A stretch of 48,963 nt of DNA from an uncultured Alphaproteobacteria bacterium (GCA_905236245.1 CAJOPC010000021.1:1-48963), one strand, 5' to 3'. Counted from the first letter of the stretch, positions 25,995 to 46,504 are shown. The notes: a model not told the origin generated them from the sequence alone. A program made the numbers and translations.

Positions 25995-28900
25995 ATGCAG
26001 AATTTTATCCGAATTTTGTTATTAGGTGTTGCATTTGTGTGTGGGGCAAGCTGTGAGGTTTGGGCAGCAGATTCGCAACATTATGTTGGGCTTCCGCGAG
26101 ATGGAATGTTAGATATTTTTGCAGATAGCGATGGTCATGCAATTTTTACTTTTCATATTGGCTCTACGGATCAGGTGTTTCATACGGCGGCCCAGGCCCG
26201 AGAGGCTTTGATAGATGAGTACTATGGTAGCCGTGAGGATCGCGCACTGAGGACTTTTGATGCTCTTGTGAGTGCATATGGTTTAAGTCCGAATGATAGT
26301 AGTACTCAATATTTTCAACCAAGAGATTACACGAGAACGTGGACCAGAGATGATAATGGACAGGTTGTTTTTGAAACACAACTTAAATCGATAACTATTC
26401 CTGGTTCTGCAGGAGGCAATTCAAATGGTTCTAGTTCGGATTATACGTATATGCCGGGAGCCTCTTGGACATCGCCAAGTGAGGTTGGTAGTGTAGGTGG
26501 TGGAGTTTTGTCTGCGCGAGAGGCAATGAAATATTCTAATATCATGGGGGTTGCTCCAAGAGATCCTACGCAACTTTCTTTTGGGCCAGTTCAGGGGGCG
26601 ACAGATCAATTTACTGGCAGCCTTACCGAATTGATGGGCAAGCCAGGGGGAAGAGAGTATTATCATGCGGTAATTGCTCCACAATTGGGTGATATGGGTA
26701 TCACGGTATTGAATAATGCGGCAAATAATACGACCTATTATGCAAAAAAGGAGGATTTACCACAGTTAAATGGTACTTTGAATCAAACCATTAAGATAGA
26801 TGGTGTCCCTATGCAAGTGGGAGATCTGGATACTGCGTCCATACGATCTTTGGCCGAAGCAAGCGGTATGACGTATAATAATGATACTACTTCTTTCAAA
26901 TATAATACCGACAGTTTAAGTGGTGTTACAAGAAACCCAGGAGGAGATTATTCTGCTACGGTTAATGGGACGGAAGTTTCCGGTATTTCACGGGAGATGT
27001 TGCCGTTTTCTATGGCCCAAACTGCAGATGATCATTTCCAGGCAAAAGTGGATCAAGTAGGAACAGCCGTACCGGTTACAACTGCAGATGGACGAACGAC
27101 GGGATGGTATGATGAAAAAACAAAAACAATAACCGTTGGAGGTCAGACATATACAGGGGTCATTGCAGAAGGAGATACTTTTTATGGTGGTAATCAGACT
27201 TTCCAACGAGCGGGGGAGGCCGCAGGATATGAGGTATATGACAAGTTTAATACCCATGTTGATCCCCAAAATGTTTCTATTAGAGTTGTAGATGGAAAGC
27301 CAGTTGCTGTTGATCGTCTTGGGCAAGTGATGGATGGGGCACACTTGGTGCCAAAGTCATTGGCTTCGGAATATAGTATGGATTCATACTTGGTTTATGA
27401 TAAAGACGGTGGTACTTGGAGTATAAGAGGTAATGATGCAAGCGGATCTCTTGTTCCAGCTCAAGTGCTTCAATATAATCCAGCGACAAATACATTTGAA
27501 TTGTCGGATGCACAGCGGCAATTGAACGCGGCACATGTTGCCAATCAGAACAATTATAACGCACAAATGGCAAAACTGGGCGAACAAATAAAGGGCGCAG
27601 AGGATGTTTTGCGTTTTGCAACCGTGCCCGAAAAGAATGCCGAAGGTCAGAAAACTGGTGGAACTACCTGGTTAAGCGATAGCGATAAGGAAACAATTCG
27701 AGGATTTATTAACAATGGTAATGCGGCTGGGTTGCAGGAGTATTTTGCGAACAACAATCCGGGTTTGTCTGAAGGGGATGTTAAAGCATTAGTGAATGCG
27801 GCTGCATCTCGGGCTACTCTTGATTCCTTGGCTAAACAACCAGGTGTGACGCAAGGGGATGTTCCTACTATGAACTTTAATAGTGCTATTGATAATGATT
27901 TAAAGAAAATGCAAACTCTTGCCGGTACAGTGAATGGAAATGATACGCTTGAGAATCGTTGGAATGCTTTGACCAGTTTGGCAGGTTTGGCTAATGGATA
28001 TGCTGATCCTAATTCGCCGACTTATAATCCTAGCTTTAATCCCAATAATATGCCATCAAGCATTGGATCCGCGATGGATGCGTCTCAGTACTTTTTTGAT
28101 ACGTCAGGAGATACGCTTAAGGGTGCCAATAAGACATTGTGGGATAATTTGAGATTTGGTCAAAATGATTATAATCAGTCTGGATATTACGCATTGAATG
28201 ACCAGAATCGTGGAATAATAGATGGACGCTACATGTTTGATGCCCGAGAAGGTAGTGAGTTTTCAAAGGGTTTGGCCAAGTTGGGTTTGAAAGTTGTGAC
28301 GCCGGATGGTGGTGATACATGGCAATTTGTGGCTGCGGGAGATTATAAGGATTTAGGTAGTGCATATATGGACTATGCTGCGGCAAGGAATGCTTATGAT
28401 GCATTATCTGGTCGTGGAAGTATGTCTCAAAGTACTTCGACAGTTGGCCGGTTACAAAATACGATTAGAGATCTTGAAAATAGGCTAAGTGAAATGCCAT
28501 TCTTTAAGAATAAGGACCAGAAGGCTCAAGCGGCTCAGCTTAAGCAACAGCTTGCAGACGCCAAAAAAGAACTTGCGGCAGCACAGGGACTGGTCGATAC
28601 TTATAAAAAGGATTTGAATGATCCTACTAATTTCAGCAAGTATTCAGAACTTGTTGGTCCTATGCAGGCGGCTCAGGACAGATTGGCGGCAGCTGAGGCA
28701 GCTTTAAAGAAAAACCCAAATGATCCAAAAGCAAAACAGGCTGTTGAATCGGCTAAGAAGGCGTTAGAAGATGCGCAAAATGCGTCCAAGCAAAATGTGC
28801 AAGATCTAGGGGCCCAACATATAGCAGCCGAGGCGGCAAATGCGGCACGGGAAAAGTTGATAGCAGAGTCAAGGAATGCTGCAAATCAAACTCTTGCCGG

Positions 28901-29984
28901 AGCGGCTGGATCTGGTGATACACCTAATGGACTTGGAACAAACAATAATGGAACATTTGTGCCAAGCGCTGGATTTGCACCGTTCTATAATATGATGATG
29001 GATCCGGATAGCGAGATTGGTGCGGGTATGCGTAATTATTTTGCAAGTAGCATTGACCCAAATACTGGTAATACATCTTCTGATTATCACAACCTTGATT
29101 TTTACAAGAATATGAGTCCGGAGCAAAGGGAAGCCTTTGATAAGTGGTTTGGTGGTTTGTCTCCCGAAGAAAGGCAAGCTTTGCAGACTGCCGGTGTCCA
29201 AACGGATGGTCCAATGGGAACGAAAAAAACTGAAGATCCATTGATGGCCCAAACCGAATTGGATAAGAAGGGAATGGATGTTCCACATGAAGCAAAGGTG
29301 GCAGATATTATCCAGTTAGCCTTAGAAATCACGAATACTCTTATGACCGACAATGAATTCGATGAAGTTAAGAACGTCGAAATTGCGGCAGGTGATATTG
29401 GCGAGGCCGTTGGCCCTGTTGAACCGACAGCGTTGGCAGATTCTGATTCTGTGACTCCAAGTGGTCGAATCACCAGTGCGGCAAGTTCTGCAGCCACATT
29501 GTTGAAGATGAGTCCTGTTGACTTGGATCTTTTGAGCACACATGTTGCACAAGAGGAAGAGGAGAATAATACACCTGCTTTACAAACGGGTCTTGGCGGA
29601 ACAAGTCAAGGACAAGGAACCGGAGAGGATGGCACACTTAATCCACCTGCACCGACGCCCGTTGTGGACTCAGAATATGTGAAGGAGATTAAACGACGTC
29701 GGCTTGAATTATTGCGTCAAACAGTGAATAGAGTTATTCCGTTGGCTGAAGGCATGAATGCAATATCCAAAGATTACTTTGAACGTGCAGACGGTTTTGT
29801 GTCGGATTTGAAGCCGGTGGTGACACAGAATGGATCTTTGGGTGGAAATCAAGACGTGAGTCGGTTTGTCTTGTTTGAGAACTTGCGTGCCAGTGCGTTG
29901 ACAGGGGCTCAAATGAGTGTGCAAAGTGCTAGAATTTTGAATGAACAGGAGGTTGTAGATGAAACTACATCAAGCAATAATTAA
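25995..29984 (+). CDS. Large secreted protein (~1329 aa) with coiled-coil segment and VirB5/TrbJ-like C-terminal helical region
   Basis: GGAGG RBS before ATG 25995; signal peptide ending VWA; G/T/N/D-rich N-half, Ala/Lys/Gln heptads, C-terminus resembles the downstream paralogues. Confidence 0.7.
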   Translation: MQNFIRILLLGVAFVCGASCEVWAADSQHYVGLPRDGMLDIFADSDGHAIFTFHIGSTDQVFHTAAQAREALIDEYYGSREDRALRTFDALVSAYGLSPNDSSTQYFQPRDYTRTWTRDDNGQVVFETQLKSITIPGSAGGNSNGSSSDYTYMPGASWTSPSEVGSVGGGVLSAREAMKYSNIMGVAPRDPTQLSFGPVQGATDQFTGSLTELMGKPGGREYYHAVIAPQLGDMGITVLNNAANNTTYYAKKEDLPQLNGTLNQTIKIDGVPMQVGDLDTASIRSLAEASGMTYNNDTTSFKYNTDSLSGVTRNPGGDYSATVNGTEVSGISREMLPFSMAQTADDHFQAKVDQVGTAVPVTTADGRTTGWYDEKTKTITVGGQTYTGVIAEGDTFYGGNQTFQRAGEAAGYEVYDKFNTHVDPQNVSIRVVDGKPVAVDRLGQVMDGAHLVPKSLASEYSMDSYLVYDKDGGTWSIRGNDASGSLVPAQVLQYNPATNTFELSDAQRQLNAAHVANQNNYNAQMAKLGEQIKGAEDVLRFATVPEKNAEGQKTGGTTWLSDSDKETIRGFINNGNAAGLQEYFANNNPGLSEGDVKALVNAAASRATLDSLAKQPGVTQGDVPTMNFNSAIDNDLKKMQTLAGTVNGNDTLENRWNALTSLAGLANGYADPNSPTYNPSFNPNNMPSSIGSAMDASQYFFDTSGDTLKGANKTLWDNLRFGQNDYNQSGYYALNDQNRGIIDGRYMFDAREGSEFSKGLAKLGLKVVTPDGGDTWQFVAAGDYKDLGSAYMDYAAARNAYDALSGRGSMSQSTSTVGRLQNTIRDLENRLSEMPFFKNKDQKAQAAQLKQQLADAKKELAAAQGLVDTYKKDLNDPTNFSKYSELVGPMQAAQDRLAAAEAALKKNPNDPKAKQAVESAKKALEDAQNASKQNVQDLGAQHIAAEAANAAREKLIAESRNAANQTLAGAAGSGDTPNGLGTNNNGTFVPSAGFAPFYNMMMDPDSEIGAGMRNYFASSIDPNTGNTSSDYHNLDFYKNMSPEQREAFDKWFGGLSPEERQALQTAGVQTDGPMGTKKTEDPLMAQTELDKKGMDVPHEAKVADIIQLALEITNTLMTDNEFDEVKNVEIAAGDIGEAVGPVEPTALADSDSVTPSGRITSAASSAATLLKMSPVDLDLLSTHVAQEEEENNTPALQTGLGGTSQGQGTGEDGTLNPPAPTPVVDSEYVKEIKRRRLELLRQTVNRVIPLAEGMNAISKDYFERADGFVSDLKPVVTQNGSLGGNQDVSRFVLFENLRASALTGAQMSVQSARILNEQEVVDETTSSNN

Positions 29985-30939
29985 TGCCGTTTGTGGTGCT
30001 GCTTTATTGGGGATGACGGTAGCTTCACCGGTTCGGAGTTATGCTTCGACAAGTGAGAAAATGGCTGAGATTCAGGAAGTGTTCACTTATCTTTCTGCGG
30101 GGGTTACCATACTTGCGGCAGGAGTGTCTTTGGTAACTACAGCTGGATGTCCGCTCTTTTGGTGTACGGATTCTATGCCTATGAAGGATGGAATTGGTAC
30201 TGGTTCATTTAATATAGATATTGCCGGGGCCCTTGTGGATGCTGCTGCCATTTGGGTGACCTCAGAATCTGGAACCGAGTGGAAAGGTTTGGAAGATGGT
30301 TTGCAAGCTGCTGTGCGAAAAATCGGCGAAGCAGAGGATCTACAAGAGTCTGGAGTGGAAGAAGCCTTTGTTGATAAATCAGAAATTTTGGTTGAATCCT
30401 TAGATACGGCTGGTTTGGAAGCACTGGAAGATCCAAGCGGAAACATTCCTAAGACACTCGATGAGATTATCAGTTCTCCAGCGAAAATTCAGGATGCTTT
30501 TGGCACGGTATCAGTAAGTCAATTGCAATCGGGTAGTAGTAATGGTAGCAATAGTGGTAGTAATACGAATAGTGGTAGTAATGGAACGTCAACAACGACA
30601 GTGCCATCTAATACCAATTTACAAACAGGCGTGAATCCCGAAAATCTGACGGCTGAGGAGTTAGACTTATTAAGAGCTCGTAGGCGTGAGGCTCATTTAC
30701 AAAAAGTTGCAACTGCAGGTGCTGCTCGTGCTCATTTGATGAAGGTTATTGCTAAAAGAGAAAAAGAGGCAGTTGAGAAGATGAAAGAAGTCGGTAAGGC
30801 CGATGGATTGGTTGCAAATGTTAAGTTGGTGACGGCAGATGATTTATATTTGGGACAGTTGCAAAATACAATGAATTCAGTTTTGGGGCAAGAAGTTGCA
30901 AATGAGGCTGCTGCGGCCTTGCAGAGTATTGAAGAATAA
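29959..30939 (+). CDS. Secreted protein, putative VirB5/TrbJ-like paralogue 2
   Basis: Signal peptide, hydrophobic segment, CPLFWC, S/N/G linker and shared C-terminal helical region. Confidence 0.6.
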   Translation: MKLHQAIINAVCGAALLGMTVASPVRSYASTSEKMAEIQEVFTYLSAGVTILAAGVSLVTTAGCPLFWCTDSMPMKDGIGTGSFNIDIAGALVDAAAIWVTSESGTEWKGLEDGLQAAVRKIGEAEDLQESGVEEAFVDKSEILVESLDTAGLEALEDPSGNIPKTLDEIISSPAKIQDAFGTVSVSQLQSGSSNGSNSGSNTNSGSNGTSTTTVPSNTNLQTGVNPENLTAEELDLLRARRREAHLQKVATAGAARAHLMKVIAKREKEAVEKMKEVGKADGLVANVKLVTADDLYLGQLQNTMNSVLGQEVANEAAAALQSIEE

Positions 30940-30950
30940 AGGAGGAGAAA

Positions 30951-31772
30951 ATGCGTAGAAAGCTTTTATTATCGGTTGTGGTGAGCTGTTTTCTTTTTTG
31001 TTCCAGTGTAGGTTATGGAAAGGTTGTTTTCCCGACCGGCGGTTTAGTCCATTCGCAGATACAAGATCCTATTAGCGCATTGGTTGAGGCTTTATTTTTA
31101 GCCATACAGTATACTCGTAAAGATACGGAAATTGATGCGAGCGCAGGTATTAAAAAGATAAAGGATAACATTGGACAAGGTGATGGTCCGGGAATTTCAG
31201 CAACGGGAGCTTCAGGCGCTGATACTGTTACTGATGAAGAAGCAGCTGAGATGGTTAAGGCAGCAGAAGAAGAGGCTGCAACAGTTCCTAATTTGATTAT
31301 TGAACTGATTGAGAAAAAGGAAGCCGATTTTAAGAAAGTTCAAGCGGTTATTGCAGATCAAGCTTTTGTGCGCGATAGCGCTGAAGTTAATGCTGATTGC
31401 GAATGTGATAATGGTAAAAAAGGCACACAATGTAGCCCTGTAGATTGTGCTGTTGATCGTCAAAATGAAGATTTAATGACCGCCTCAACGGCAGCATCGA
31501 CATTAGCAGATAGCTTTTTCCAAAAGGGGCAAGATGAAAGTTATGAAAAATTACAAGGGTTGATAGACCAGATTAATAGTGATGAAACGCTGATTGATTT
31601 CGTCGCAGATATGGGTGCTGTTTCTGTTTATTCTTCGGATCAATTGGTGGATATGATTGAGTTGTATGCATATGACTTGGCAGCTCAATCCTATCGTAAT
31701 TTATCAACGGTTGGCGTTGCGGAAGTTGATGTCGCACAAGCTGTGAAAGGGGATGTAGATGATGATTCGTAA
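30951..31772 (+). CDS. Secreted protein, putative VirB5/TrbJ-like paralogue 3
   Basis: AGGAGG RBS, signal peptide, IQDP motif, YEKLQGLIDQINSDET resembling the VirB5 C-terminal helix-turn-helix. Confidence 0.6.
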   Translation: MRRKLLLSVVVSCFLFCSSVGYGKVVFPTGGLVHSQIQDPISALVEALFLAIQYTRKDTEIDASAGIKKIKDNIGQGDGPGISATGASGADTVTDEEAAEMVKAAEEEAATVPNLIIELIEKKEADFKKVQAVIADQAFVRDSAEVNADCECDNGKKGTQCSPVDCAVDRQNEDLMTASTAASTLADSFFQKGQDESYEKLQGLIDQINSDETLIDFVADMGAVSVYSSDQLVDMIELYAYDLAAQSYRNLSTVGVAEVDVAQAVKGDVDDDS

Positions 31773-32637
31773 TAAAACTTTTTCAGGTATTATTTTAGGG
31801 GCTCTTTTTATGTCCTCGCTTGTTTGGGCGACATGTCCACCGGAAGGTCGTCCCAAGATTGTGATGGCTCCGTGGGCTGTGACCGATCCAATCCGTAATA
31901 TAACGGGTGCAGTTTTGACGTTGATATCCATGGGTAAGCATCCAAAACAAGTTGCAAAGATTGTTGGACACCAACAGGAAGTAGATGCTTTGATTGATGG
32001 TGAGGAGTCTTATAAGGTTGAGGAAGGAACGGGTTCGGGATCTGGTCCTTTGGAAATTAGCGCCTATACATATATCAAAGAAAAGATTTTTGATAAGCAA
32101 ATGTATTCTCCTTATTCAAAATTGAATAATAAGATTAAACCTTTATTAGGAGGTAGTAGTTCTTCCGGTTCCGGGGAATCCGGTGGTTCATCTGGCTCTG
32201 ATGGTTCTTCGGGCTCTAATGGTTCTTCGGGTTCTAGTGGTTCTTCGGGTTCAAGCTCGGGCGTTTCAAATTCAAGATTGCGTGAAGTTATCTTAGAAGA
32301 ATTTTTCATCGAAAATTCGGCTAAAAATACCGAGGAAAATCGTAAGAAAGTTCAACGTAATCGGGATGATTATTTAAGGGCTTTGGGAACTGAATATACG
32401 CGTTTGTCCAATACTGTTCAATCAAAAATCGGAGATGATATGGCGGCTGTTGTCGCAGCAGTTAGTGGAGATGGTTCTATAGGAATTGTGTCTGGAACCG
32501 ATCAGAGTTGGAAAGCTATTAACAAAGCAGTTTTGGTGGATTTGGCTTTGCAAATTGAAATGATGGAATTGGAAGCGGCACGGTTCTTGTCTGTTCAACC
32601 TATTCCAATGATTGATAATCCAGAACAAGGGTCGTAA
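31759..32637 (+). CDS. Secreted protein, putative VirB5/TrbJ-like paralogue 4
   Basis: Signal peptide ending VWA, VTDP motif, Gly-Ser linker and shared C-terminal region. Confidence 0.6.
   Translation: MMIRNKTFSGIILGALFMSSLVWATCPPEGRPKIVMAPWAVTDPIRNITGAVLTLISMGKHPKQVAKIVGHQQEVDALIDGEESYKVEEGTGSGSGPLEISAYTYIKEKIFDKQMYSPYSKLNNKIKPLLGGSSSSGSGESGGSSGSDGSSGSNGSSGSSGSSGSSSGVSNSRLREVILEEFFIENSAKNTEENRKKVQRNRDDYLRALGTEYTRLSNTVQSKIGDDMAAVVAAVSGDGSIGIVSGTDQSWKAINKAVLVDLALQIEMMELEAARFLSVQPIPMIDNPEQGS
32185..32256 (+). repeat. 4 x 18-bp imperfect tandem repeat encoding GSSGSx
   Basis: ggttcatctggctctgat / ggttcttcgggctctaat / ggttcttcgggttctagt / ggttcttcgggttcaagc. Confidence 0.85.
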
Positions 32638-32647
32638 GGAGGATCAG

Positions 32648-33853
32648 ATGAAAAAGTTTTTAATTGGTTTACTACTTTTGGGCGTGAGCGTTTCTGCTGT
32701 CGCGGTGGATGAGCCGTACGATTCTCATGCGAGAGCTACAGGTTATAATATGGCCGCAGGAAAACAGCAGGGAACTGAATTGGGAAATAGAAATGATAAT
32801 CCTACTTATCGTAAAGATGATGATATCGCGGCTGGTATCAATATGGGGCTTGGTTCTATTTCCATGGTGGATTCTCTTTTGGGAATGTTTACTAAATTTA
32901 CAATAATGGGAAAACTTAATGAATGGGCTAAAGATGCCATTCAAGGTTTGATTTCTTCTGGAGAATCTAAGGCTGCTAACTGCCCGCTGTGTGCTACGAC
33001 ATTGGCAACGGAAGCAACAGGTGGCCCTGAAGATCCGGCTTATGCTGGGGCTTATGCTTCATTTTTGTTGTCTTGTGAGACAATGCCTCCTGTTATGTTA
33101 AAACCTGGTCCAAACGAGCAACATTCTTTTGAAGATACTGTTTGCCCGGTGTGTGTGGAATCTATTGGACATAAGTGGCCACCGATTCTTTTTGTGGCGC
33201 CGGATGTGATGGGTTTGGTTGTTTCAGGTGTAAAATTGCTCACAACACAATTTTTACAGGATGCTAATAAAGTTATTGCACAATTGGTTGGAGCAGAAGG
33301 CCATGTGACAGATAAATGGGTTGGTCCGCCATCTCGTAATACAGTTATTCAAACTATGGGCGAAGTTATTGCGGTTACTTCTCATACATTTGCTTCCTTG
33401 GGTTTTGATGCAAGTGAATACAAGGGAATAGAGGCTCCGGATAAAGCTTCTAGACGAGAATTATTTGAATATCGTTCTAAACAGATTGCCGAAGATCAAA
33501 GATCTTTAAAGAATGTGACACAAAAGAATTTGCGTTTGTTGTATCGTGCTCAACAACGTTCGGTAAAGGCTTTGACTCGTGCGATGGAATTAAAAAAGCA
33601 ATTAAATGTTTTGGCAGATGTGGATGCTAAGATTGATGCAAAATATGATAATTTGCCATCTTCTTTGTCGGCAGAAGCCAGTCGTCGGGCCTTGTTTGGT
33701 GCTTTGATGCAATTAAAATTAAGTATAGTGGCTGCGCGTACGAAAATGCGTTCAGAGGCTTTGGAATTAGAATTTAAACCCATGGTTAAACAAACAGAAG
33801 GTGTGAAATTAGCCACGGGAACTGCTGGGATAACAGACGGAGGCTCACAATGA
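32648..33853 (+). CDS. Secreted Cys-containing protein, putative VirB5/TrbJ-like paralogue 5
   Basis: AGGAGG RBS before ATG 32648, signal peptide AVA, CPLC and CPVC motifs, helical C-terminus. Confidence 0.55.
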   Translation: MKKFLIGLLLLGVSVSAVAVDEPYDSHARATGYNMAAGKQQGTELGNRNDNPTYRKDDDIAAGINMGLGSISMVDSLLGMFTKFTIMGKLNEWAKDAIQGLISSGESKAANCPLCATTLATEATGGPEDPAYAGAYASFLLSCETMPPVMLKPGPNEQHSFEDTVCPVCVESIGHKWPPILFVAPDVMGLVVSGVKLLTTQFLQDANKVIAQLVGAEGHVTDKWVGPPSRNTVIQTMGEVIAVTSHTFASLGFDASEYKGIEAPDKASRRELFEYRSKQIAEDQRSLKNVTQKNLRLLYRAQQRSVKALTRAMELKKQLNVLADVDAKIDAKYDNLPSSLSAEASRRALFGALMQLKLSIVAARTKMRSEALELEFKPMVKQTEGVKLATGTAGITDGGSQ

Positions 33854-35651: not shown

Positions 35652-35712
35652 TTTTTTTGTTGGATATTTTATTTTTATGTGTTAAAGTAGGAAAGGTATA
35701 GTAAGAGAGGTA

Positions 35713-35895
35713 ATGAAAATGAGAAAAGTTTTATTATTAGCAGTGGTTGTCGGAGCTGTTGTTTTAGCAGCATGTACATCTGTGTATGAAAAACCACCAG
35801 TTGGAATCGGAACAGAATATTCTGAATTAAAAAAGTCGCCTTGTGCTTGTTTAGAGCTGAAAAAGGCTCCAGAGGTGCCAGAGTGGTTCTCTTAA
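35713..35895 (+). CDS. virB7: VirB7-like small lipoprotein
   Basis: Lipobox LAAC, KSPCAC motif, position between two virB8 genes. Confidence 0.65.
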   Translation: MKMRKVLLLAVVVGAVVLAACTSVYEKPPVGIGTEYSELKKSPCACLELKKAPEVPEWFS

Positions 35896-36611: not shown

Positions 36612-36678
36612 AAATCTGATATATTTAAGCTAAGAAAATTTTTTCTTGTAAAAAACTTAAAAAAAACACTTTTTTTAC

Positions 36679-36707: not shown

Positions 36708-36741
36708 GAAGTAAAGCGGTGTCTAGAAAAAAGGAGGACAA

Positions 36742-38433: not shown

Positions 38434-38442
38434 GGATTTTTA

Positions 38443-41400
38443 ATGGCAGAGAATCGGAAAAGCTTATCAGAACAATCAAAACAACGGACAACTTGGATTT
38501 TATCCGTTATGGGTTTGATCATTTTGATGTTGTTTATTGTGGTTTTCTGCTCTTTAAGACAGAAAGAAGCTCCTGTTGTGCGTCAACAAGAACAAGATGT
38601 CTTTACGGTGACATCCACATTAGATGACGCAAATAATGGAGATTCGGGGATCCCCGATTGGAATGCGGAAAAAGCACAATTAATTATTAATCCCGCCGAG
38701 GTTGATTTAGGTAAAGCAATTTTGGGGGCGACAGCTGAGGCCAATGTTATTTTAAGAGCGGAAGATGCCCCGATTGTCTTTTTGCAAAAGTATCTAGCGG
38801 AAACGACGGATAATGGTTTTATCTTGACGGGTCCTTGTATGGAAAAAACGCAATTGAATGCGGGCGAGGAATGTGTATTGAAAGTTACTTGGACGCCTGT
38901 GACAGTGCGCAACATACAAAATGTATTGACAATTGTATGGCGGACTGATGATCCTCGAGTTTTGCGTGATCAAAGAAGCCAAATCCAATTAAGAGCAAGT
39001 TCGACAGATTCTAAAGATTGTGTTTGTTGTGAAATCGAAAAAGAAACAGAGCCTGTTGTTCCTCAAAAGGGTGTCAATGTTGCGACCGGTGAGGAAGTTG
39101 AAATCAAAGATGGCAAGGTCATCGTAGATGGTAAAGAGATCGAAGTCAAAGGAGAAGTTGCTATTGATCCGGACAGCGATATTTTTGTTATTGTTGAGCC
39201 AGAACGCATAGCATTAAGTTTGGATAATAAGTTTTTGGGTCGTGTTTCCGATCGTCGTACGGTCGTAGATGCAGAAGGTAAAACTATTGGTCGGTTATTA
39301 GGAGATGATACATTAGTTGATTCTAATTTCAATATTTTAGGGGCAGCGCTACCATTGGTTTCTGTATTAGATGCTCAAGGCGCCGTTATTGGTAAAACAG
39401 AGGTCACTCAAGATGGAAAAAATGTTCGTGTTGTTGATGCAGATGGCGAAATTGGAACTTTGAGAGTAGATGGATCTGTTGTGGATAGATCGGGCACTCA
39501 AATCGGTATGTTGCGCGATTGGGGTATGGCCATGGATTTGTCTGGCGAGTTGATGGGGGCGGTTTTGCCAACAGGTGTGGTTGTTAATTCAAACAAGAAA
39601 GCTTTAGGACATATTCAACAAAATGGCTTTATTTTGGATGATAGCGGTATCTTGATTGGTGGTGTTGTGCCAAAAGGTATTGCGGTCGGAACAGGATGTC
39701 GTTCATATGGAACGATTGCGTTAAATGGTCAGGTTAAGGATTCATATGGTCAGGTTGTTGGTCGAGTGATGTTGGATCGAGGTGTTGTTGATACAAACTT
39801 TAACGAGCTTGGTGCGGCAGTGTCTGCGGGTGTTATCGTTGATATGAAAGGCCAAGTAATTGGGTTTGTTAATTCAGAAGGTAAAGCTGTTGATGGTAAA
39901 GGTTCTTTAATTGGATGTATTGCGCCGAACGGAGTGGTGTCTGCAGGCAAGAAGAACGTAGGCGGTATTTTGCAAAAAGGTAAAGTGACAAGTAATACAT
40001 GCGGTGTGTTGGGTTCTGTATATCCAGATGCAAGTGTTATGAATCAAGATGTTCAACCCATTGGAAAAGTGCGTTCGGATGGATATGTTATTGACAAGCA
40101 AAATAACCGTTTAGGTATTGTTGTTCCTCGGGGCACAGTGCTTGCTGAAGCTTGTAATTTGATGGGTGTTATTTCTGTTACCGGTCAGGTGATTAATACA
40201 AAAGGGATGTCTATCGGATGTATCAATATGTCTCGCCAAGCTGTCGATACAGAAGGCCGAGAAATTGGTAAAATAACTCCGACGGGACCGGTATTGGCCG
40301 CAGATGGTACTTTGGTTGGTCGAGCAAGATATGATGGACGAATTATTGATAAATCCGGGAAAGTAATTGATTGTATTAATCCAGATGGTAGTAGCTCTGT
40401 GGGACAATCCGCAGGTAGTGGCCGTGGTAATGGTGCAATTTTTGATGATAATGGTTTGCCGACAGGGTGGACTTCTTTGGCTGGTAAATGTTATGATGAA
40501 CGCAATGATGAAGTTGGTACTATTGCTTTCAATGGTTGGGTTTCTGATAAAAACGGACGGTTGATCGGATTTATGCCGCCAAATGGTTTTGTTGTTTCTT
40601 CTTCTGGATCCATTTTAGGTAATTATAACGCATTGTTGGGCTTGGTTCAAAATTTGAACGGAGATGAGTTAGGTCGTGTTATGCCCGATTGGACGGTTTT
40701 AAATGTTGATGGAACTGAAATTTTAGGAGCTCTTATTCCTTCAAATGCTGGATTTGTTGATTTGTCTGGTAAAGTTATCGGGCGTTTAAATGGGGATGGT
40801 AAGGCAATCAATGCAGAAGGCAGTGTATTAGGTAAAGTTTTGGCTGATGGTGCTTTGTATGGAAATGATAATGCATTGCTTGGTGGTATGGTTCCTACCG
40901 GAGCGGTGTTGTCTTCATTGGGCGCATATGTTGGATTGGCCAATGAACAAGGAGATGTGTTGGCTCAAGGAACCCGTATTGGTCGTGCTCTTTCCAATGG
41001 ATTGGTTGTTACACCGGATAATCGTATATTGGGCCGTGTATGGATGCCAATGTCTGTTTTGGTGTCTGGAGAAGGTGTTATTGGAACGATTGTTCCTAAG
41101 GCTGTGAATAAATCTGATAGCACTGCTTATCAGTTGGCCGGATATGATAAGACGGGCAATTATCTTGGAAGTGTTTCTCCATTTGGTGTTTTACTATCTA
41201 GTGATGGGCGTTTAGGTGGTAGGGCCGTGCCGATTACCATGGTTGTTGATACCAGTCGTCGTTTTATTGGTTGGGTTAATTTTAAAGGACAAGTTGTAAA
41301 TGCCGAAGGGCAAGGTGTTGGTGTTTTAATGGGCGATGGCCTTGTTTTGGACAGCGACGGACATTTGGTTGGAACCGTTGTTCGTAAAGGAACTGTTGTG

Positions 41401-44400
41401 AATTCTCAAGGTGAATTTATGGGAATGGTTGGTGTTGATGGTGTGGTTCAAACTGCCAGTGGCGCGACACCCTTATTTATTGGGCCATCGGATGTTATGA
41501 TGTCGTCTGATTTTAAGACAGAAGGTCGGTTGTTGCCTATCGGTTTAGGAATGTCTGTAGTCAAAGGTTTACAAGGTTGGACACAGGCGGATGGCCAAAT
41601 TGCTAATGCCTCCGGCGTTGTTGGACGTGTGTTTGCGGATAATCGTGTTCAAGATGGGGCCGGTGTTATTACAAGCGGATATATCCCATTGGGGGCACCT
41701 TCTGTGCATGAGACGGTTTCCGGCATTGTGAATGAGGTAGGTAATGTTGTATCTGTGGCCGGTAAAACTTTGGGTGTTGTTTTAGCCCCGGATTATACAA
41801 TCCAGAATGGTTTGTTGGTTGGGCGTATACGCACGCAATCTGTATTTGTTCGGAATATAACGAATCCTGAACCTGTGGGCCCAGCCTCTTTGGATGGTTC
41901 TGTTTATCGGGAGCGCACGGTTAAAAGTGTTGCCGATTTAATGTTGAATAATTTTGCGGTAGATTCGAATAAGAAGGTAATGGCTTGTGCCGTTCCTGCT
42001 GGTTATGCGACGGCTGTGAATTTGACGCCATTGGGCGTAGAAGATGAAATGGGTTCAATCGCAAAAGATACAAAGGTTCAAGCACAAAGTTCCGGTTTGG
42101 GTATTACATATTTGAATTCCAGCACGATCAATGGTGGTATTTTTGCCCCAGGATTAGTGGTTGATAAAAATGGTGCTATTTTAGGCAGAAGTAATGCATT
42201 GAGTGATGTTGTGGATAAAAGCGGTAAAAAGATTGCTTCGCGGATGGCTTTTGATTCAGCTTTAACAGAAGAAACAATTTGGGCCGGCGGTGTAATTCGC
42301 ACAGGTGCGGTTATTGATGACTATGCTAAAAAGGTTGGCGCTGTCGCTGCGGATGGAACTTTAGTTGGTGTTGCAAACTCTTTTAAAGGGCGTATTTTGT
42401 CGGATGGTTCAGCCGTTGGTGTTTCGGAGCCGGAAGTTTATAATTCTATGCCATATGTCGGACATTTAACTTCTCAAGGAGTGCCGTTCAGCTATGAGCG
42501 AACGATTATTGGTCGCACAACATTGCAGGGCGATGTGATAGATGCTTCTAATAAAGTGCTTTTCCAAACATTGGATGATGGAACGATTTTAGGAAAGACT
42601 CGGCCTTTGGAAGGTGTTATTTTGCCGTTTAGAACAGCGGTATCTCAACAAAATACAGTTTTGGGAATCATGGATGGTGATGCGCATGTTCTTTCTCCAA
42701 GTGGGGAAGATGTTGGCCCTGTGGCGAATAATGGTGCGGTTAAAGGTGATCATGAATTAAAGGATATCGGTGGTTTAATTCCGGATACTTTGGTTGTGAA
42801 TAATTGTAAAGTTATTGGTCAAACAGCTTATAACGGTGAAGTGGTGAATGGTCAAGGTAATACAGTTGGTCGTATGCAACCAGATGAATGGGCGGAAGAT
42901 ACGCAAGGTAAAAAATTAGGGCGTTCGGTGCGCTATGGACCTGTGACAGGTCTAGAAACAACGGCATGGAATTATGTAGGGCGTGTGTTGCCAGATTCAA
43001 CGGTTGTGAATCCTGATGGTGTGTTGATTGGGTGCGCTCAAAATGATAAGATGGTGTTAGATTCTTCGGGCGAAGAAATTGGCCGTGTTAGAAGCCGTGG
43101 TCCAGTATTTAACAAAGAACACAGAATGTTTGGTCGTGTAGATGCTATGGGTCGAGTAGTTGGCGTGGACAATGAAATCCTTGGATTTATTGCTGGCCGT
43201 GAAGATAAAGCTTATAACTTTGAAGGTAAAGAAATTGGTTGGATGGCTTCACGTGAAGACGAGTTGTTCTTTAATCCGGATGGGACATTGGCCAAAGTTT
43301 TGAGTCGTGAAGGTGATGTGAAAGATGCTGATGGCAACTTCCTGTTTAGAATTGATCAAAAAACAGGCAAAATTTACGATAAATATGGCAATGAAATTGG
43401 TCAGTTAGGGGAAGAAAATTATGTGTACTTATATGATATGGAAGATCATATTGTTGCTCGGTTAGTGGGATGTGAATTGAAAAAGTTGCCCGAAGGGAAC
43501 AAGATGGGTATGTTATTAGCGGATGGAACAATCCAAGATGACAATGGTGAATTGATTTTATCTGCAACGCCCGATGGTAAAGTGTTTAATCCAGATGGAA
43601 CTCAGTATGGTCGTTTTTCCGGTATAGGTTTGGATTTGCGTCGATGCGGATTGTCGGGAACTAATGCTGCGGCTAGTCGTAAAATCGTTTGGGGCGGCAA
43701 ACCTTATACAGTTGAAAATGGTATGATTTTAAATGAACAGGGTGAGGGCATTGGTTATATTGATGAGAATGGTAGGCCTTATTGGTTTGATAAAGCTAAG
43801 CCAGAAGTTATTAAGCCTCGGGAAGATCCTCGGGTGCGTCCTGACTTGCCAAAGCCACGTAAGCTGACGCCAGAGGAACGCGAAAGAATGGTAGATATTG
43901 TGAATAAGCGCCGTAAATTGATGCAAAAGGAATTGGGTAAACCTGTCGAAATTCCCGGATATATTAAGGCGATGGCAAAGAAACACAAAGACAAGGATTG
44001 GGGGAGCGATAAGGCTGTTTCTACTTGGCCGGTTGATATGTCCAATGTGCTGTTAGCCGATAAGGCAATTCCTGCTGTTTTGGTTCGGTCTATTGATTCT
44101 CGTTATGCGGACGTGCCTGTGACGGCGATGGTAGAACGTCATATTTATGCTGAAGAAGGCCGGCGTATTTTGATCCCAGCGGGCAGCCATTTGATTGGTG
44201 AAGCGTCCGGAGGAGCTGCCGGTGCAGGTGGTATTTGGGATACTAGCAAAATTGCTATTTCATGGAAGCGGTTGATTCGTCCGGATGGGGCTGCATTTAA
44301 ATTTTCAGCAACATCAGGTGACGCACAAGGTCGTGGCGGTGTTGCGGCTTATTTGGATGATCGGTTCTTTGAAAAGTATGCTCGTCCGGTCTTGGCAACA

Positions 44401-44937
44401 TTTGCCGAAGGCGCCGTGTTAAAGGCAACCGAGTTGAATCAGTCTGATGAAGAAAAGGCAGCAGAGGCAAGTGCTTCGGGTGAAACGCCGGGTAAGCAGA
44501 CACGTGATATGTTGATTAAGAACTTTAAAGATATTTATGATCAGATGATCGAAGCCGCTGGTAGTGTTGAGACAATTGTTTATGTTCCATCCGGAACGCG
44601 GATAACCGTATTTGCCAATACCGATTTGTGGTTGCGTTCTGTGAGTGATGATGTGGAGGATGAGTCAAAAGGAAATTTGGTTGGAAATTTATTTGAGTCT
44701 AAAGATTCAGAAACAGGAGATGTCGAGCCATGGACTAAAGCTCGTTCAAAAGAGATGCAAGATGGTGCTGGCTCAGATGATGATATGGGCGGGGATTCCG
44801 GTGCATCGGGTGGTGGCCGGTTAAATCCTACGCCTGATGTGGATGCTATCTACGAGCCAGAATTGCCAGATGATTTAGATAATCGAACAGTTTTGCCTGT
44901 CGGTAGTCAAGAATCAGACGACAAGAATTATTTTTAG
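38443..44937 (+). CDS. virB10: Giant VirB10/TrbI protein (2164 aa): TM, Ig-like domain, 17-aa repeat array, TrbI domain
   Basis: TrbI motifs IPAVL..SIDS, ILIPAGS.LIG, W.RLIRPDG, DAQGRGG, TIVYVPSGTRITVF; lies between virB9 and virB11. Confidence 0.9.
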   Translation: MAENRKSLSEQSKQRTTWILSVMGLIILMLFIVVFCSLRQKEAPVVRQQEQDVFTVTSTLDDANNGDSGIPDWNAEKAQLIINPAEVDLGKAILGATAEANVILRAEDAPIVFLQKYLAETTDNGFILTGPCMEKTQLNAGEECVLKVTWTPVTVRNIQNVLTIVWRTDDPRVLRDQRSQIQLRASSTDSKDCVCCEIEKETEPVVPQKGVNVATGEEVEIKDGKVIVDGKEIEVKGEVAIDPDSDIFVIVEPERIALSLDNKFLGRVSDRRTVVDAEGKTIGRLLGDDTLVDSNFNILGAALPLVSVLDAQGAVIGKTEVTQDGKNVRVVDADGEIGTLRVDGSVVDRSGTQIGMLRDWGMAMDLSGELMGAVLPTGVVVNSNKKALGHIQQNGFILDDSGILIGGVVPKGIAVGTGCRSYGTIALNGQVKDSYGQVVGRVMLDRGVVDTNFNELGAAVSAGVIVDMKGQVIGFVNSEGKAVDGKGSLIGCIAPNGVVSAGKKNVGGILQKGKVTSNTCGVLGSVYPDASVMNQDVQPIGKVRSDGYVIDKQNNRLGIVVPRGTVLAEACNLMGVISVTGQVINTKGMSIGCINMSRQAVDTEGREIGKITPTGPVLAADGTLVGRARYDGRIIDKSGKVIDCINPDGSSSVGQSAGSGRGNGAIFDDNGLPTGWTSLAGKCYDERNDEVGTIAFNGWVSDKNGRLIGFMPPNGFVVSSSGSILGNYNALLGLVQNLNGDELGRVMPDWTVLNVDGTEILGALIPSNAGFVDLSGKVIGRLNGDGKAINAEGSVLGKVLADGALYGNDNALLGGMVPTGAVLSSLGAYVGLANEQGDVLAQGTRIGRALSNGLVVTPDNRILGRVWMPMSVLVSGEGVIGTIVPKAVNKSDSTAYQLAGYDKTGNYLGSVSPFGVLLSSDGRLGGRAVPITMVVDTSRRFIGWVNFKGQVVNAEGQGVGVLMGDGLVLDSDGHLVGTVVRKGTVVNSQGEFMGMVGVDGVVQTASGATPLFIGPSDVMMSSDFKTEGRLLPIGLGMSVVKGLQGWTQADGQIANASGVVGRVFADNRVQDGAGVITSGYIPLGAPSVHETVSGIVNEVGNVVSVAGKTLGVVLAPDYTIQNGLLVGRIRTQSVFVRNITNPEPVGPASLDGSVYRERTVKSVADLMLNNFAVDSNKKVMACAVPAGYATAVNLTPLGVEDEMGSIAKDTKVQAQSSGLGITYLNSSTINGGIFAPGLVVDKNGAILGRSNALSDVVDKSGKKIASRMAFDSALTEETIWAGGVIRTGAVIDDYAKKVGAVAADGTLVGVANSFKGRILSDGSAVGVSEPEVYNSMPYVGHLTSQGVPFSYERTIIGRTTLQGDVIDASNKVLFQTLDDGTILGKTRPLEGVILPFRTAVSQQNTVLGIMDGDAHVLSPSGEDVGPVANNGAVKGDHELKDIGGLIPDTLVVNNCKVIGQTAYNGEVVNGQGNTVGRMQPDEWAEDTQGKKLGRSVRYGPVTGLETTAWNYVGRVLPDSTVVNPDGVLIGCAQNDKMVLDSSGEEIGRVRSRGPVFNKEHRMFGRVDAMGRVVGVDNEILGFIAGREDKAYNFEGKEIGWMASREDELFFNPDGTLAKVLSREGDVKDADGNFLFRIDQKTGKIYDKYGNEIGQLGEENYVYLYDMEDHIVARLVGCELKKLPEGNKMGMLLADGTIQDDNGELILSATPDGKVFNPDGTQYGRFSGIGLDLRRCGLSGTNAAASRKIVWGGKPYTVENGMILNEQGEGIGYIDENGRPYWFDKAKPEVIKPREDPRVRPDLPKPRKLTPEERERMVDIVNKRRKLMQKELGKPVEIPGYIKAMAKKHKDKDWGSDKAVSTWPVDMSNVLLADKAIPAVLVRSIDSRYADVPVTAMVERHIYAEEGRRILIPAGSHLIGEASGGAAGAGGIWDTSKIAISWKRLIRPDGAAFKFSATSGDAQGRGGVAAYLDDRFFEKYARPVLATFAEGAVLKATELNQSDEEKAAEASASGETPGKQTRDMLIKNFKDIYDQMIEAAGSVETIVYVPSGTRITVFANTDLWLRSVSDDVEDESKGNLVGNLFESKDSETGDVEPWTKARSKEMQDGAGSDDDMGGDSGASGGGRLNPTPDVDAIYEPELPDDLDNRTVLPVGSQESDDKNYF
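39205..43790 (+). repeat. Protein-level array of ~17-aa VxDxxGxxIGxVxxDG repeats in VirB10 (approximate bounds)
   Basis: Examples: QVKDSYGQVVGRVMLDR / VIVDMKGQVIGFVNSEG / KAVDGKGSLIGCIAPNG / SVMNQDVQPIGKVRSDG; diverged at the DNA level. Confidence 0.85.
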
Positions 44938-44951
44938 GAGTTTAAATTTAA

Positions 44952-45938
44952 ATGGGTGGCGGATTAGTTGATTCATACAGAGTTTTGGAAATGGCTTTGA
45001 AGCCCTTGTCATATTGGTATAGTCAAGACAATGTGGAAGATGTTGCAGTCAATAATCCTGGCGGTATATGGTTGCGTCTTCGAGGTCGTCATGCGCATCC
45101 GTGGCATTATTATGAAGATCCAAAACTAACAAGAGAATATTTGTATAATATTATGTATTTGATTGCAAATACATTGGAACAGCCGTTTGGTCCAGAGATT
45201 CAAATTCCGATGCTTTACACGGATTTGCCCGGCGGACACCGTTTCGGCGGTATTATGGGGCAAAATGTGCGTTATGATGAAAATGATTTGGAGGGCGGTA
45301 TTGCATTCGATATCCGTGTTTATCGGCCAGATGTTGATATTAAAATGGAAGAATTTGGTTTGGTCAAAGGTGGTCGCTTACATCAATTGAATCGTTTGAA
45401 AAATGTGGAAGATCCGGATGATCCGTATGAGCGATTGGTTTTATCTATCAAACGTGGAGATCATTTGTTGATCAGTGGTGGAACGGCGACCGGTAAAACA
45501 ACATTTTTAAATAATATCTTGAAATTATTGGATGAACACAAGCGTATTGTGACGGTTGAAGATACACGAGAATTGATTGTTCATCAACCGAATCATGTAC
45601 ATTTGTTGGTTTCTCGTGCTGGTGCGGCAAACAAATTTGGTTATGCTCAAGTGGTGGACTTGGTTAACCGTTTTACGCCGGATTCTATTATTTGCGGAGA
45701 GATTTCAACAGATAATGCTTCTGCTATATGGGAATTGATGAATACTGGTCACGATAACTGCTTTGCAACTATTCACGCAGATAGTGCGGAAACGGCTTAT
45801 CGCGCTTTTATCAGCCGAATTATGCATACAAATCGTGAGCTGGATCAAGATAAAACATTTAAAGAAATGAAAGAGCGGTTGCGTGTTGTTCAAATCAATC
45901 GTGATGGAAATATTCGTGCAATTACTGCTATTACTTAA
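44952..45938 (+). CDS. virB11: VirB11-family secretion ATPase
   Basis: DVAVNNPG, Walker A GGTATGKT, Asp box VEDTREL, Walker B PDSIICGE and His box NTGH..ATIHA. Confidence 0.92.
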   Translation: MGGGLVDSYRVLEMALKPLSYWYSQDNVEDVAVNNPGGIWLRLRGRHAHPWHYYEDPKLTREYLYNIMYLIANTLEQPFGPEIQIPMLYTDLPGGHRFGGIMGQNVRYDENDLEGGIAFDIRVYRPDVDIKMEEFGLVKGGRLHQLNRLKNVEDPDDPYERLVLSIKRGDHLLISGGTATGKTTFLNNILKLLDEHKRIVTVEDTRELIVHQPNHVHLLVSRAGAANKFGYAQVVDLVNRFTPDSIICGEISTDNASAIWELMNTGHDNCFATIHADSAETAYRAFISRIMHTNRELDQDKTFKEMKERLRVVQINRDGNIRAITAIT

Positions 45939-45949
45939 AGGAGAAAAGT

Positions 45950-46504
45950 TTGAGAACGGTACCGACTTTGTATATTGCACAAACTGCTGATGGTATTGGA
46001 CTTCCTTTGCCGTCATATACGAGTCGTTATCATGTGGGATTAAATCTTCAAGCTGCAATTCCTTCTGCAATGCGATTGGAGCCAGGGGAAAGAGTTGTTG
46101 TTCCTTGTGGTTTTGAGATAGGAATTCCAGATGGTTATTGTGGTCAAATTTTAAGTAATGCCGCTATGGCGCAAGCACACGGATTGATTATTTTGGGTGG
46201 TCCTCAACTTGTGCATCCGGCAGATCGTGGTCCTTTATTTTTGTTGCTTCAAAATATATCGGCAAAACAGGTTGTGTTGCATCGTGGAGATGTTGTGGCA
46301 CAATTGATTATTTGCCCCGTTGTTCAAGTTGCGTGGCGTGATTTAACAAGAAAGGATAGTTATTTGGCTCCCACAACAGATGTTGATGGCTTAGTTTTAG
46401 ATGCAGCAGAAGTTCAAAGTGAAGGAGCAACAGAAAAAACACCCTCTAAACGGGTTTATAAAAGCCCCAGGAATCGATTTGCAAGTGAAGAGGAAGAAGA
46501 ATGA
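45950..46504 (+). CDS. dUTPase-fold protein with degenerate catalytic motifs
   Basis: LPLPSY, GLNL.AA, LEPGER.VVP.G..I.IP.GY.GQI and RGD.VAQL frame retained; motifs 2, 3 and 5 altered; AGGAG RBS with TTG start. Confidence 0.8.
   Translation: MRTVPTLYIAQTADGIGLPLPSYTSRYHVGLNLQAAIPSAMRLEPGERVVVPCGFEIGIPDGYCGQILSNAAMAQAHGLIILGGPQLVHPADRGPLFLLLQNISAKQVVLHRGDVVAQLIICPVVQVAWRDLTRKDSYLAPTTDVDGLVLDAAEVQSEGATEKTPSKRVYKSPRNRFASEEEEE

Follow-up and report, generated by a model that had tools for sequence, protein, structure and literature searches.

What kind of machine is encoded by a row of 13 co-oriented genes at positions 25995-46504 of a DNA stretch from an uncultured Alphaproteobacteria bacterium, and does its likeness to rvh, a type IV secretion system (T4SS) of Rickettsia, reflect descent? 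The window is the whole stretch analysed, 48,963 nucleotides, from which all positions are counted; it is the entire contig C21 of a genome (G000) of 1.12 Mb in 55 contigs that is 85% complete. We consider it probable, at roughly 0.7, that the locus belongs to a domesticated, non-conjugative and vertically inherited contact and translocation T4SS of P-type, derived from a conjugative ancestor of the kind found on MobA/MobL plasmids. The original prediction had spoken of a Rickettsia-rvh-like core, but this resemblance is one of gene order only, as three of five rvh hallmarks fail and the VirB4 and VirB8 trees separate the two systems. The system is less Rickettsia-like than first proposed, but more widespread.

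Judged by sequence comparison, the set of subunits VirB2 to VirB11 plus VirD4 seems to be complete, which places the system in the P-type (VirB/D4-like) class. The 13 genes of the window all lie on the + strand with overlaps or gaps of no more than about 130 bp and encode, in this order, six secreted proteins, VirB8, a VirB7-like lipoprotein, a second VirB8, VirB9, VirB10, VirB11 and a degenerate dUTPase-like protein. Both the tight packing at 25995-46504 and the order B8-B7-B8-B9-B10-B11 (35031-45938), which had been noted from the sequence at the outset, are borne out by coordinates and Pfam. The remaining genes had been expected in separate islets and were found there: virB2 alone on contig C12 (the only VirB2 found in the genome), virB3 together with virB4 (813 amino acids, aa) on C24 adjoining gatCAB, three tandem polytopic VirB6-like open reading frames (ORFs) of 689, 433, and 772 aa at C45:28130-33827, and a full-length virD4 of 743 aa on C4 (PF02534, expect value E 2.4e-52). 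The set is divided over five contigs. VirB2, VirB4, both copies of VirB8, VirB9, VirB10, VirB11, and VirD4 score above their Pfam cut-offs, and VirB3 gives a weak match (19 bits vs a cut-off of 23.9). Comparison of profiles revealed VirB5, position and lipobox point to VirB7, and VirB6 follows from transitive homology, the three ORFs having 4-9 hydrophobic segments and 29-39% tblastn identity to three tandem ORFs of the same genus that match TrbL. Searches of the genome for relaxases of the families PF03432, PF08751, and PF03389 gave no match at E<=0.1, other MOB families not having been searched, which is in line with the non-conjugative character proposed earlier, as far as an 85%-complete genome can tell. 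The content of guanine plus cytosine (GC) of the locus resembles that of the remainder of the genome.

A scan with VirB11, using one genome per species, recovered 33 loci at 67-83% identity, all of them from gut, rumen, or faecal metagenome-assembled genomes, 32 titled "Alphaproteobacteria bacterium" and one "Pseudomonadota bacterium". In 31 of these loci VirB9 is followed colinearly by a giant VirB10 and by VirB11, and the other two end at contig ends; further upstream, tblastn detects the VirB7-like gene in 28 and the downstream VirB8 copy (VirB8b) in 29, the 10-kb flank ending near these genes in the others. The window's genome belongs to a family whose members inhabit gut and rumen and have genomes of about 0.7-2 Mb. 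Of 80 genomes of this family 77 possess VirB9, always as a single copy; it occurs in 16 of 16 genera and is missing from only one of the 54 genomes that are at least 90% complete (53 of 54); rows with two matches represent the N- and C-terminal parts of one ORF. Twenty loci from 12 of the 16 genera were fetched with their upstream regions, and in all 20 a row of three to seven signal-peptide ORFs, with an ORF of the g06 type (see the list below), lies directly upstream of the first VirB8 gene, VirB8a. Outside the genus of the window the array begins right after ORFs that match folD, a surA-like gene, and lptFG-lptD of the window, the flanking ORFs of relatives having received their names from matches to Pfam-scanned genes of the window; in the window the same genes are inverted and lie 10-15 kb upstream of the array. 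Because the same chromosomal neighbourhood is kept across relatives, the locus appears to be inherited vertically, as had been anticipated, with a local rearrangement in the window. In the sister families f58 and f24 the order is a contiguous B2(s)-B3-B4-[secreted array]-B8a-B7-B8b-B9-giant B10-B11, with VirB2 in three copies in f58, which makes the dispersal of the genes in the window's genome a secondary state.

For the ancestry of the system, NCBIfam NF010473, a model of VirB4 equivalogs which we take to be rickettsial, was used to look for references of rvh type in a sample of 401 genomes of the class. Its cut-off is exceeded in only two genomes (G366 and G215), both of family f137, which possess two VirB4 copies each, tandem VirB6-like genes after VirB4-I, and an operon B8-B9-B10(457-472 aa)-B11-D4, a locus structure in keeping with rvh. 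PF12574 (Sca4 of Rickettsia), tried as a tag for Rickettsia in the class sample, gave no match in any genome, and its controls were silent as well. A VirB4 tree was built with FastTree (LG+G) from 80 sequences over 771 columns, with these f137 sequences, not named Rickettsia sequences, as rvh references; in it the rvh-type proteins form a clade of their own (support 1.0), and their identity to the query is 17-22%, vs 25% for ordinary plasmid VirB4. The family of the query groups with f24 and f58 (1.0), then with f78, and then with VirB4 from plasmids of Microvirga and Erythrobacter (0.96-0.98); the query is 35-38% identical to these MobA/MobL plasmid proteins. The VirB8 tree (IQ-TREE, 46 sequences, 218 columns) resolves VirB8a and VirB8b as two clades, each monophyletic over families f1, f24, and f58 (ultrafast bootstrap, UFBoot, 79 and 97), and the pair leaves outside the single-copy VirB8 proteins of f154 and f22, as well as those of the plasmids and of the rvh-type genomes. 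The VirB8 duplication therefore arose within this lineage, and the likeness to rvh, consisting in the B8-B7-B8 order, several large VirB6, and scattered islets, is best read as convergent, not inherited.

The genes of the locus and their neighbour downstream are the following.

25995..29984, + strand: g01, secreted protein of 1,329 aa with a signal-peptide-like N-terminus, fold unassigned
29959..30939, + strand: g02, secreted protein of 326 aa, C-terminus possibly VirB5-like (weak hhalign match)
30951..31772, + strand: g03, VirB5-like secreted paralogue (hhalign vs profile A1)
31759..32637, + strand: g04, VirB5-like secreted protein with a Ser/Gly linker, founder of a 40-member paralogue family
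32648..33853, + strand: g05, VirB5-like secreted paralogue (hhalign vs profile A1)
33850..35013, + strand: g06, secreted long-helix protein of a 17-member cluster, directly upstream of VirB8a
35031..35651, + strand: VirB8a, the upstream and more divergent copy (Pfam PF04335, E 8.6e-7)
35713..35895, + strand: VirB7-like lipoprotein of 60 aa, lipobox LAAC, between the VirB8 genes
35910..36611, + strand: VirB8b, the downstream and more canonical copy (Pfam PF04335, E 5.3e-13)
36742..38433, + strand: VirB9, 563 aa (Pfam CagX/VirB9, E 3.1e-15)
38443..44937, + strand: giant VirB10, 2,164 aa (TrbI/VirB10, E 1.6e-29; Bflower_2, E 6.4e-70)
44952..45938, + strand: VirB11 ATPase (Pfam T2SSE/VirB11, E 3.2e-22)
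45950..46504, + strand: degenerate dUTPase-fold protein (Pfam dUTPase, E 1e-8)
46501..46980, + strand: secreted SH3 protein (Pfam SH3_4, E 1.7e-18), overlapping the dUTPase-like gene by 4 bp

All 14 ORFs, including the 6.5-kb frame of VirB10, are intact.

The six upstream ORFs (25995-35013) share hydrophobic N-termini of the Sec-signal-peptide type, as judged by inspection and a hydropathy scan, and none has a Pfam match above cut-off; on 35 array proteins Pfam gave only scattered chance matches. Profile comparison is more informative. The g04-family profile (A1, 35 sequences) matches, with an hhalign probability of 95% and E 4e-8, the protein encoded directly after VirB4 on the Erythrobacter aureus plasmid, which itself belongs to PF07996, the VirB5 family (30.3 bits vs a cut-off of 24.7). 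The g03 family matches A1 at 97.3% (E 1.7e-11, 117 C-terminal columns) and the g05 family at 95.9% (E 6e-9). By these matches (95-97%), g03, g04, and g05 are VirB5 homologues, so that the locus holds at least three VirB5-like paralogues, and an early guess at multiple tip-like proteins gains substance. The match of g02 to A1 is weak (45%, E 2e-4, colinear over the C-terminal 89 columns), and the C-terminus of g01 reaches only 3.5% with A1, i.e., no link. Orthologues of g01, of 694-1,403 aa, occupy the same position in six loci of the same genus (L052-L057), but tblastn matches are confined to query residues 1047-1328, only the C-terminal ~280 aa being conserved within the genus.

Clustering of 100 array ORFs by blastp (16 loci plus the window) yields one family of 40 members including g04, with two or three copies in most loci and four in L067. 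The g06 cluster has 17 members, the window and all 16 clustered loci; by tblastn g06 is detected in 14 of the 20 fetched loci. Its alignment (A2) contains the invariant residues H55, C91, G166, A325, D329, and C384, two of them cysteines, and profile comparison reveals no relation to A1 or to plasmid VirB5; g06 is a system-specific subunit. In the loci of relatives the array proteins are 25-49% identical where VirB9 is 50-77% identical, and the array thus evolves much faster than the core. AlphaFold models of g04 (predicted local distance difference test, pLDDT, 72) and g06 (pLDDT 80, predicted template modelling score, pTM, 0.68) are long-helix bundles for which Foldseek found nothing in PDB at E<=1e-3; in the search with g04, CagL stood at rank 25 with a non-significant E of 1.8. 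A wider fold search with g04 gave its best Z score, 8.1, to spectrin repeats, i.e., a generic helical bundle; the g06 model had no usable match in the ESM Atlas. An 18-bp tandem repeat of 3.7 copies at 32184-32252 encodes the Ser/Gly-rich linker of g04 and is a possible site of length variation.

The distinct architecture with a giant VirB10 that had been described is confirmed. Its 2,164 aa comprise a transmembrane segment within residues 14-43, a weak ASH-like domain (83-165), about 1,500 aa of degenerate beta-hairpin (beta-flower) repeats with Bflower_2 matching in nine stretches, a TrbI barrel domain (1870-2064), and an acidic tail. By hydropathy and motif count, Gly and Val abound in the repeat region, where hairpins recur about every 17 aa. 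At the DNA level, the gene (38443-44937) has no tandem repeats except for one 35-bp stretch, and no repeats in a self-BLAST. Across the family its orthologues measure about 2,100-2,300 aa, and in the class sample of 401 genomes the C-terminal domain resides in frames of 1,280-2,838 aa in 18 genomes of 10 families, all with genomes of 1.1-2.5 Mb. The next tier of relatives has frames of 508-843 aa, and the remaining matches, including ordinary systems, 284-672 aa. In one f58 genome (G435:C7, L074+L075, joined positions 17214-25267) the giant VirB10 is represented by two adjacent ORFs of 1,148 and 1,534 aa; the split may be genuine or else due to a frameshift or to faulty assembly. In a genome of family f154 (G232:C1, L078+L079), a block lies between VirB9 and a VirB10 of 506 aa, consisting of a 616-aa ORF weakly matching the window's VirB11 (26%, E 8e-7), a 408-aa ORF, and short ORFs that are pilin-like by eye; it may be a hybrid of T4SS and pilus genes. 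Among the matches listed in a literature search on VirB10, TrbI, and type IV secretion, the term "beta-flower" was not met.

The other core proteins are more conventional. An NPxG motif is invariant in VirB8a (A3, 17 sequences) and in VirB8b (A4), and VirB8 profiles match PDB structures of VirB8 from Bartonella and Brucella and of TrwG, VirB8b matching Bartonella VirB8 (4mei) at 6e-10; phmmer searches of PDB with single VirB8 copies and the VirB9 profile gave no T4SS match. The VirB7-like protein has no Pfam family match; its mean column identity is 68% (14 sequences), with the invariant pattern C..YE..VGIG..LK.SPCAC..P.W, and together with VirB9 it spans 58-68%. A predicted complex of VirB9 residues 235-352 with residues 21-60 of the VirB7-like protein scores 0.07 vs a mark of 0.32, which is not evidence either way. 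VirB9 contains a low-complexity linker and a C-terminal domain of ~90 aa conserved across the family (A5). The name SPOR-VirB9, given to it initially, could not be substantiated, since this C-terminus scores 17.4 bits (E 0.0058) against SPOR PF05036, below the cut-off of 21; its last 101 aa have no sequence match in PDB.

Downstream of VirB11, the dUTPase-like protein scores 81 bits with NF001862 vs a cut-off of 103. We take the dUTPase motifs to be defined and numbered in the usual way, as five catalytic motifs with an Asp in motif 1 and a C-terminal motif 5. Compared with the genome's own Dut (C43:11850-12359), the Asp of motif 1 is replaced by Asn, the Arg-Ser of motif 2 is lost, and motif 5 is absent; the description as a degenerate dUTPase holds, and the protein appears to be non-catalytic with a Dut fold. 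It ends instead in a conserved tail, S.RR.V.SIRNRYK followed by acidic residues, in 10 of 10 aligned orthologues. It may serve as regulator, adaptor, or substrate. Only in the closer part of the family does its gene accompany VirB11, and there the SH3 gene is present with it, the two occurring together in 13 of the 33 loci.

The locus is flanked by housekeeping genes, upstream by dnaA, yebC, lepA, folD, the lptF/G-lptD fusion, hpf, rnhA, and infC and downstream by mscS, carD, and a tRNA. The original prediction of such a setting, devoid of relaxase, integrase, and transposase, stands for the flanks but needs correction in one point, as a Phage_integrase-family gene with the XerC/D domain pair, the sole tyrosine recombinase in the window, is found at 15677-16603, about 9 kb upstream, adjoining the lptFG-lptD gene. 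Wherever the sequence of the 20 relatives' loci extends to this point, an ORF of the same size and with a conserved N-terminus lies upstream of an lptFG-lptD-like ORF (the Pfam scan covered the window copy only), and because of this conserved pairing the recombinase is read as a chromosomal housekeeping gene. The lptFG-lptD gene (12443-15676, - strand) is a single 1,077-aa ORF that fuses an LptF/LptG permease (residues 7-355), LptD_N (398-480), and the LptD barrel (644-1011). A single-polypeptide, envelope-spanning lipopolysaccharide exporter of this kind would be unusual. ORFs of 1,074-1,097 aa with the same conserved N-terminus, not Pfam-scanned, are situated upstream of the array in the relatives' loci that extend to this point. 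Since dnaA is at 3131-4639 (- strand) and the cumulative GC skew climbs steadily across the window, the T4SS locus is no more than about 25 kb away from where the replication origin probably lies. Between rnhA and infC, a 434-aa ORF (23626-24930, - strand) matches no Pfam family at E<=1e-5.

Several neighbours of the other islets deserve mention. Beside the VirB6-like genes, C45:23388-28120 (- strand) encodes a double-HTH_3 regulator (355 aa, 79% identical to its same-genus orthologue) and four unknown genes; these always come after the VirB6-like genes, and in family f58 their homologues adjoin VirB11 on the opposite strand; their membership in the T4SS regulon is probable. Two ORFs, at C12:7349-7975 and C45:19628-20155, start like type IV pilins (…GRSM/ITEML.V.AIVG/A…), one of which adjoins virB2, and a second ATPase of the type II secretion/type IV pilus (T2SS/T4P) kind is found at C12:15593-15934. 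At C4:80976-92889, the neighbours of virD4 are unknown genes (372, 212, and 146 aa) and an autotransporter gene that continues up to the end of the contig and encodes at least 2,490 aa.

From these features we infer the function and target of the system. A conjugative ancestor, like those on MobA/MobL plasmids of free-living Alphaproteobacteria, would have been domesticated on the chromosome. The resulting machine would be energised by VirB4, VirB11, and VirD4, and its outer-membrane core would be formed by the VirB7-like protein, VirB9, and the C-terminus of VirB10. The ~1,800 aa of VirB10 between membrane anchor and TrbI barrel might build an enlarged periplasmic or surface scaffold, comparable to CagY in Helicobacter. 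The fast-evolving VirB5-like copies, together with g01, g02, and g06, could be variable pilus-tip or surface adhesins which select the target cell, as Bartonella TrwJ does, and VirD4 would feed protein substrates into the partner cell, a gut eukaryote or another bacterium.

Among other genes of the genome, a solid ankyrin-repeat protein of 182 aa is encoded at C15:2199-2495, its best stretch scoring 41 bits and 64.7 bits with its neighbour, and eight weak Ank_2 matches exist, six of them in ORFs of 504-1,649 aa, with large ORFs on C48, C45, C46, and C9; these ankyrin-repeat proteins are possible eukaryote-directed effectors. Searches of the same genome with PF20410 (XVIPCD) and PF03219 (ATP/ADP translocase) gave no match, but the controls were equally silent and the result says nothing either way.

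Some points weigh against a complete, non-conjugative system of plasmid-type descent. All core proteins stay below the NCBIfam equivalog cut-offs, VirB11 for example reaching 149 bits with TIGR02788 vs 250. The VirB6-like ORFs of the window's own genome fall below Pfam TrbL even at E 0.05, and the VirB7 assignment is based on position, size, lipobox, and conservation. With 85% of the genome assembled and three relaxase families searched, a relaxase, a second VirB4, or a second VirB9 could reside in the unassembled part. Finally, the rvh-type label of f137 is based on the NF010473 score, the two VirB4 copies, the tandem VirB6, and the operon, and on taking this model to be rickettsial.

Of the other explanations, the one that survives best is a machine for adhesion only, a pilus without substrate translocation, although we regard it as unlikely. 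The parts of PMC2883598 drawn on here describe the Trw system of Bartonella as having amplified trwL and trwJ genes that mediate host-specific adhesion, and no coupling protein. The amplified and fast-diverging VirB5-like genes of our system and the three VirB2 copies in f58 would suit such a role. Yet a full-length, albeit unlinked, VirD4 is kept here, in contrast to Trw as portrayed there, VirB11 is kept as well, and adhesion and translocation are compatible with each other.

Transfer of DNA, by conjugation or by an ICE (integrative and conjugative element) whose relaxase and origin of transfer (oriT) are hidden in the unassembled 15% of the genome, seems to us decidedly improbable. The presence of VirD4, the incompleteness of the genome, and the fact that the nearest named relatives are T4SSs of MobA/MobL plasmids speak in its favour. 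It is opposed by the three relaxase searches without a match, the scattering of the genes among housekeeping genes on five contigs, a chromosomal neighbourhood that stays the same in all 20 inspected loci (from 12 of 16 genera), and a GC content like that of the remainder of the genome. Furthermore, VirB5 amplification and a giant VirB10 are foreign to the plasmid relatives, whose VirB10 measures 529-590 aa.

Still less can be said for true membership in, or a sister relationship to, the rvh system of the Rickettsiales, with common descent accounting for the B8-B7-B8 duplication and for the several VirB6 copies, which we consider very improbable. The case for it begins with gene order, since in the consulted part of PMC2653234 islet C of Rickettsia reads B9a-B8a-B7-B8b-B9b-B10-B11-D4, islet A reads B3-B4a-B6a-e, and B2 stands by itself, so that B3-B4 and B2 form separate islets there, too. 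It continues with the three large VirB6-like genes and with the upstream VirB8 copy being the more divergent, as is RvhB8-II in Rickettsia (PMC4676284, in part), and it includes higher scores of the core proteins on the NCBIfam models PRK13897, PRK13898, and PRK13900 than on PRK13850, PRK13853, and PRK13851. However, of the rvh hallmarks listed in the part of PMC11077975 used here, which calls rvh a bona fide rickettsial signature (duplicated B4, B8, and B9, multi-copy B6, and no B5), only two of five, VirB8 duplication and multi-copy VirB6, are found. VirB4 is single by tblastn in the window's own genome, where no second VirB9 is detected either and the two VirB8 genes are the sole paralogue pair; four f1 genomes gave one VirB4 match each, at most two candidates being scored per genome. 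VirB9 occurs as one ORF in each of 77 of 80 family genomes, and g03, g04, and g05 are VirB5-like, whereas rvh is defined there as lacking VirB5. In the trees, rvh-type VirB4 stands apart and farther from the query than plasmid VirB4 does, and plasmid and single-copy VirB8 sit between rvh-type VirB8 and the B8a/B8b pair. NPxG is kept in both VirB8 copies but lost in RvhB8-II (PMC4676284, same part), the R. typhi RvhB8-II structure 4O3V is absent from the VirB8-profile matches in PDB at E<=10 whereas Bartonella, Brucella, and TrwG VirB8 are matched, and the locus is contiguous in the sister families.

That the locus is a decaying relic without present function is hardly credible, for although its proteins are very divergent, all under the NCBIfam cut-offs, with VirB4 named "hypothetical protein" at NCBI and VirB10 split into two ORFs in one sister genome (G435), all 14 window ORFs including the 6.5-kb frame are intact, length and order are conserved in 16 genera with genomes below about 2 Mb, where unused genes normally go, and the VirB7-like protein and VirB9 retain 58-68% mean column identity.

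We return to a domesticated contact and translocation T4SS as the preferred explanation. Gut and rumen Alphaproteobacteria with genomes of about 1 Mb have been described as devoid of most biosynthesis and of standard transporters, and as probably dependent on other cells; the words secretion, T4SS, and VirB are absent from the main text of a metabolic study of them (PMC12306168). A literature search on Alphaproteobacteria RF32 and type IV secretion returned no paper, and the system is not mentioned in the searchable literature. A conserved chromosomal T4SS with adhesin-like arrays is a concrete and testable candidate for partner contact in these bacteria. As a more speculative and, in our view, doubtful extension, it might be the defining organelle for contact with a host or partner in a large and so far undescribed radiation of reduced-genome Alphaproteobacteria, which in the sample comprises 10 GTDB-level families. 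It would combine convergent rvh-like traits, a periplasmic or extracellular sheath made of the beta-flower arm of VirB10, and a VirB5-like array conferring partner specificity, and would serve these metabolically crippled gut bacteria for attachment to a protist or a bacterium, protein injection, and possibly metabolite uptake. The system also offers a second, independent remodelling of rvh-like kind (VirB8 duplication around VirB7, multiple VirB6, scattered islets), which helps to sort what is adaptive from what is historical in rvh, a second giant-VirB10 lineage besides CagY with another repeat type, and a new example of VirB5 amplification beyond Bartonella Trw.

In comparison with known systems, rvh, as far as the parts of its literature cited above describe it, shares the order B8-B7-B8-B9-B10-B11, separate B3-B4 and B2 islets, several enlarged tandem VirB6, a chromosomal location, a reduced-genome host, and the lack of a detected relaxase. 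It differs in that VirB4 and VirB9 are single here, several VirB5-like genes exist, VirD4 is unlinked, VirB10 has 2,164 aa vs 457-472 aa in the examined genomes of rvh type, NPxG is retained by both VirB8 copies, and the VirB4 and VirB8 trees keep the systems apart. With the Cag system of Helicobacter pylori, our system has in common a VirB10 orthologue of giant size, in which a long stretch of repeats precedes the conserved C-terminal domain, and a VirB9 best matched by the Pfam CagX model. In the portions of the sources considered, CagY differs from other VirB10 orthologues in having a large repeat region (PMC5954226), its repeats are encoded by recombining DNA direct repeats (PMC2194252, PMC5954226), and they form alpha-helical modules (PMC2581425), whereas the repeats here are degenerate beta-hairpins without DNA repeats. 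Membership in the Cag type was considered and rejected, as recombining DNA repeats and a significant CagL fold match are lacking and no Cag-specific genes were seen. Bartonella Trw, again as far as the source goes, resembles our system as a chromosomal, domesticated conjugation machine with tandem amplified, fast-diverging VirB5/TrwJ pilus components, but combines heavy VirB2 amplification with the lack of a coupling protein, whereas VirD4 is present and one VirB2 was found here. The plasmids of Erythrobacter aureus (NZ_CP031358) and Microvirga sp. VF16 (NZ_CP069357) carry contiguous loci with a relaxase, one VirB8, and a VirB10 of 529-590 aa, and in these respects they are unlike the window's system; the Erythrobacter locus has one annotated VirB5, and two ORFs in that position are unnamed in Microvirga. 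They nevertheless contain its closest named VirB4 relatives, the sister group in the tree, and share with it a VirB5 homologous to the array and the basic order B2-B3-B4-B5-...-B7-B8-B9-B10-B11-D4.

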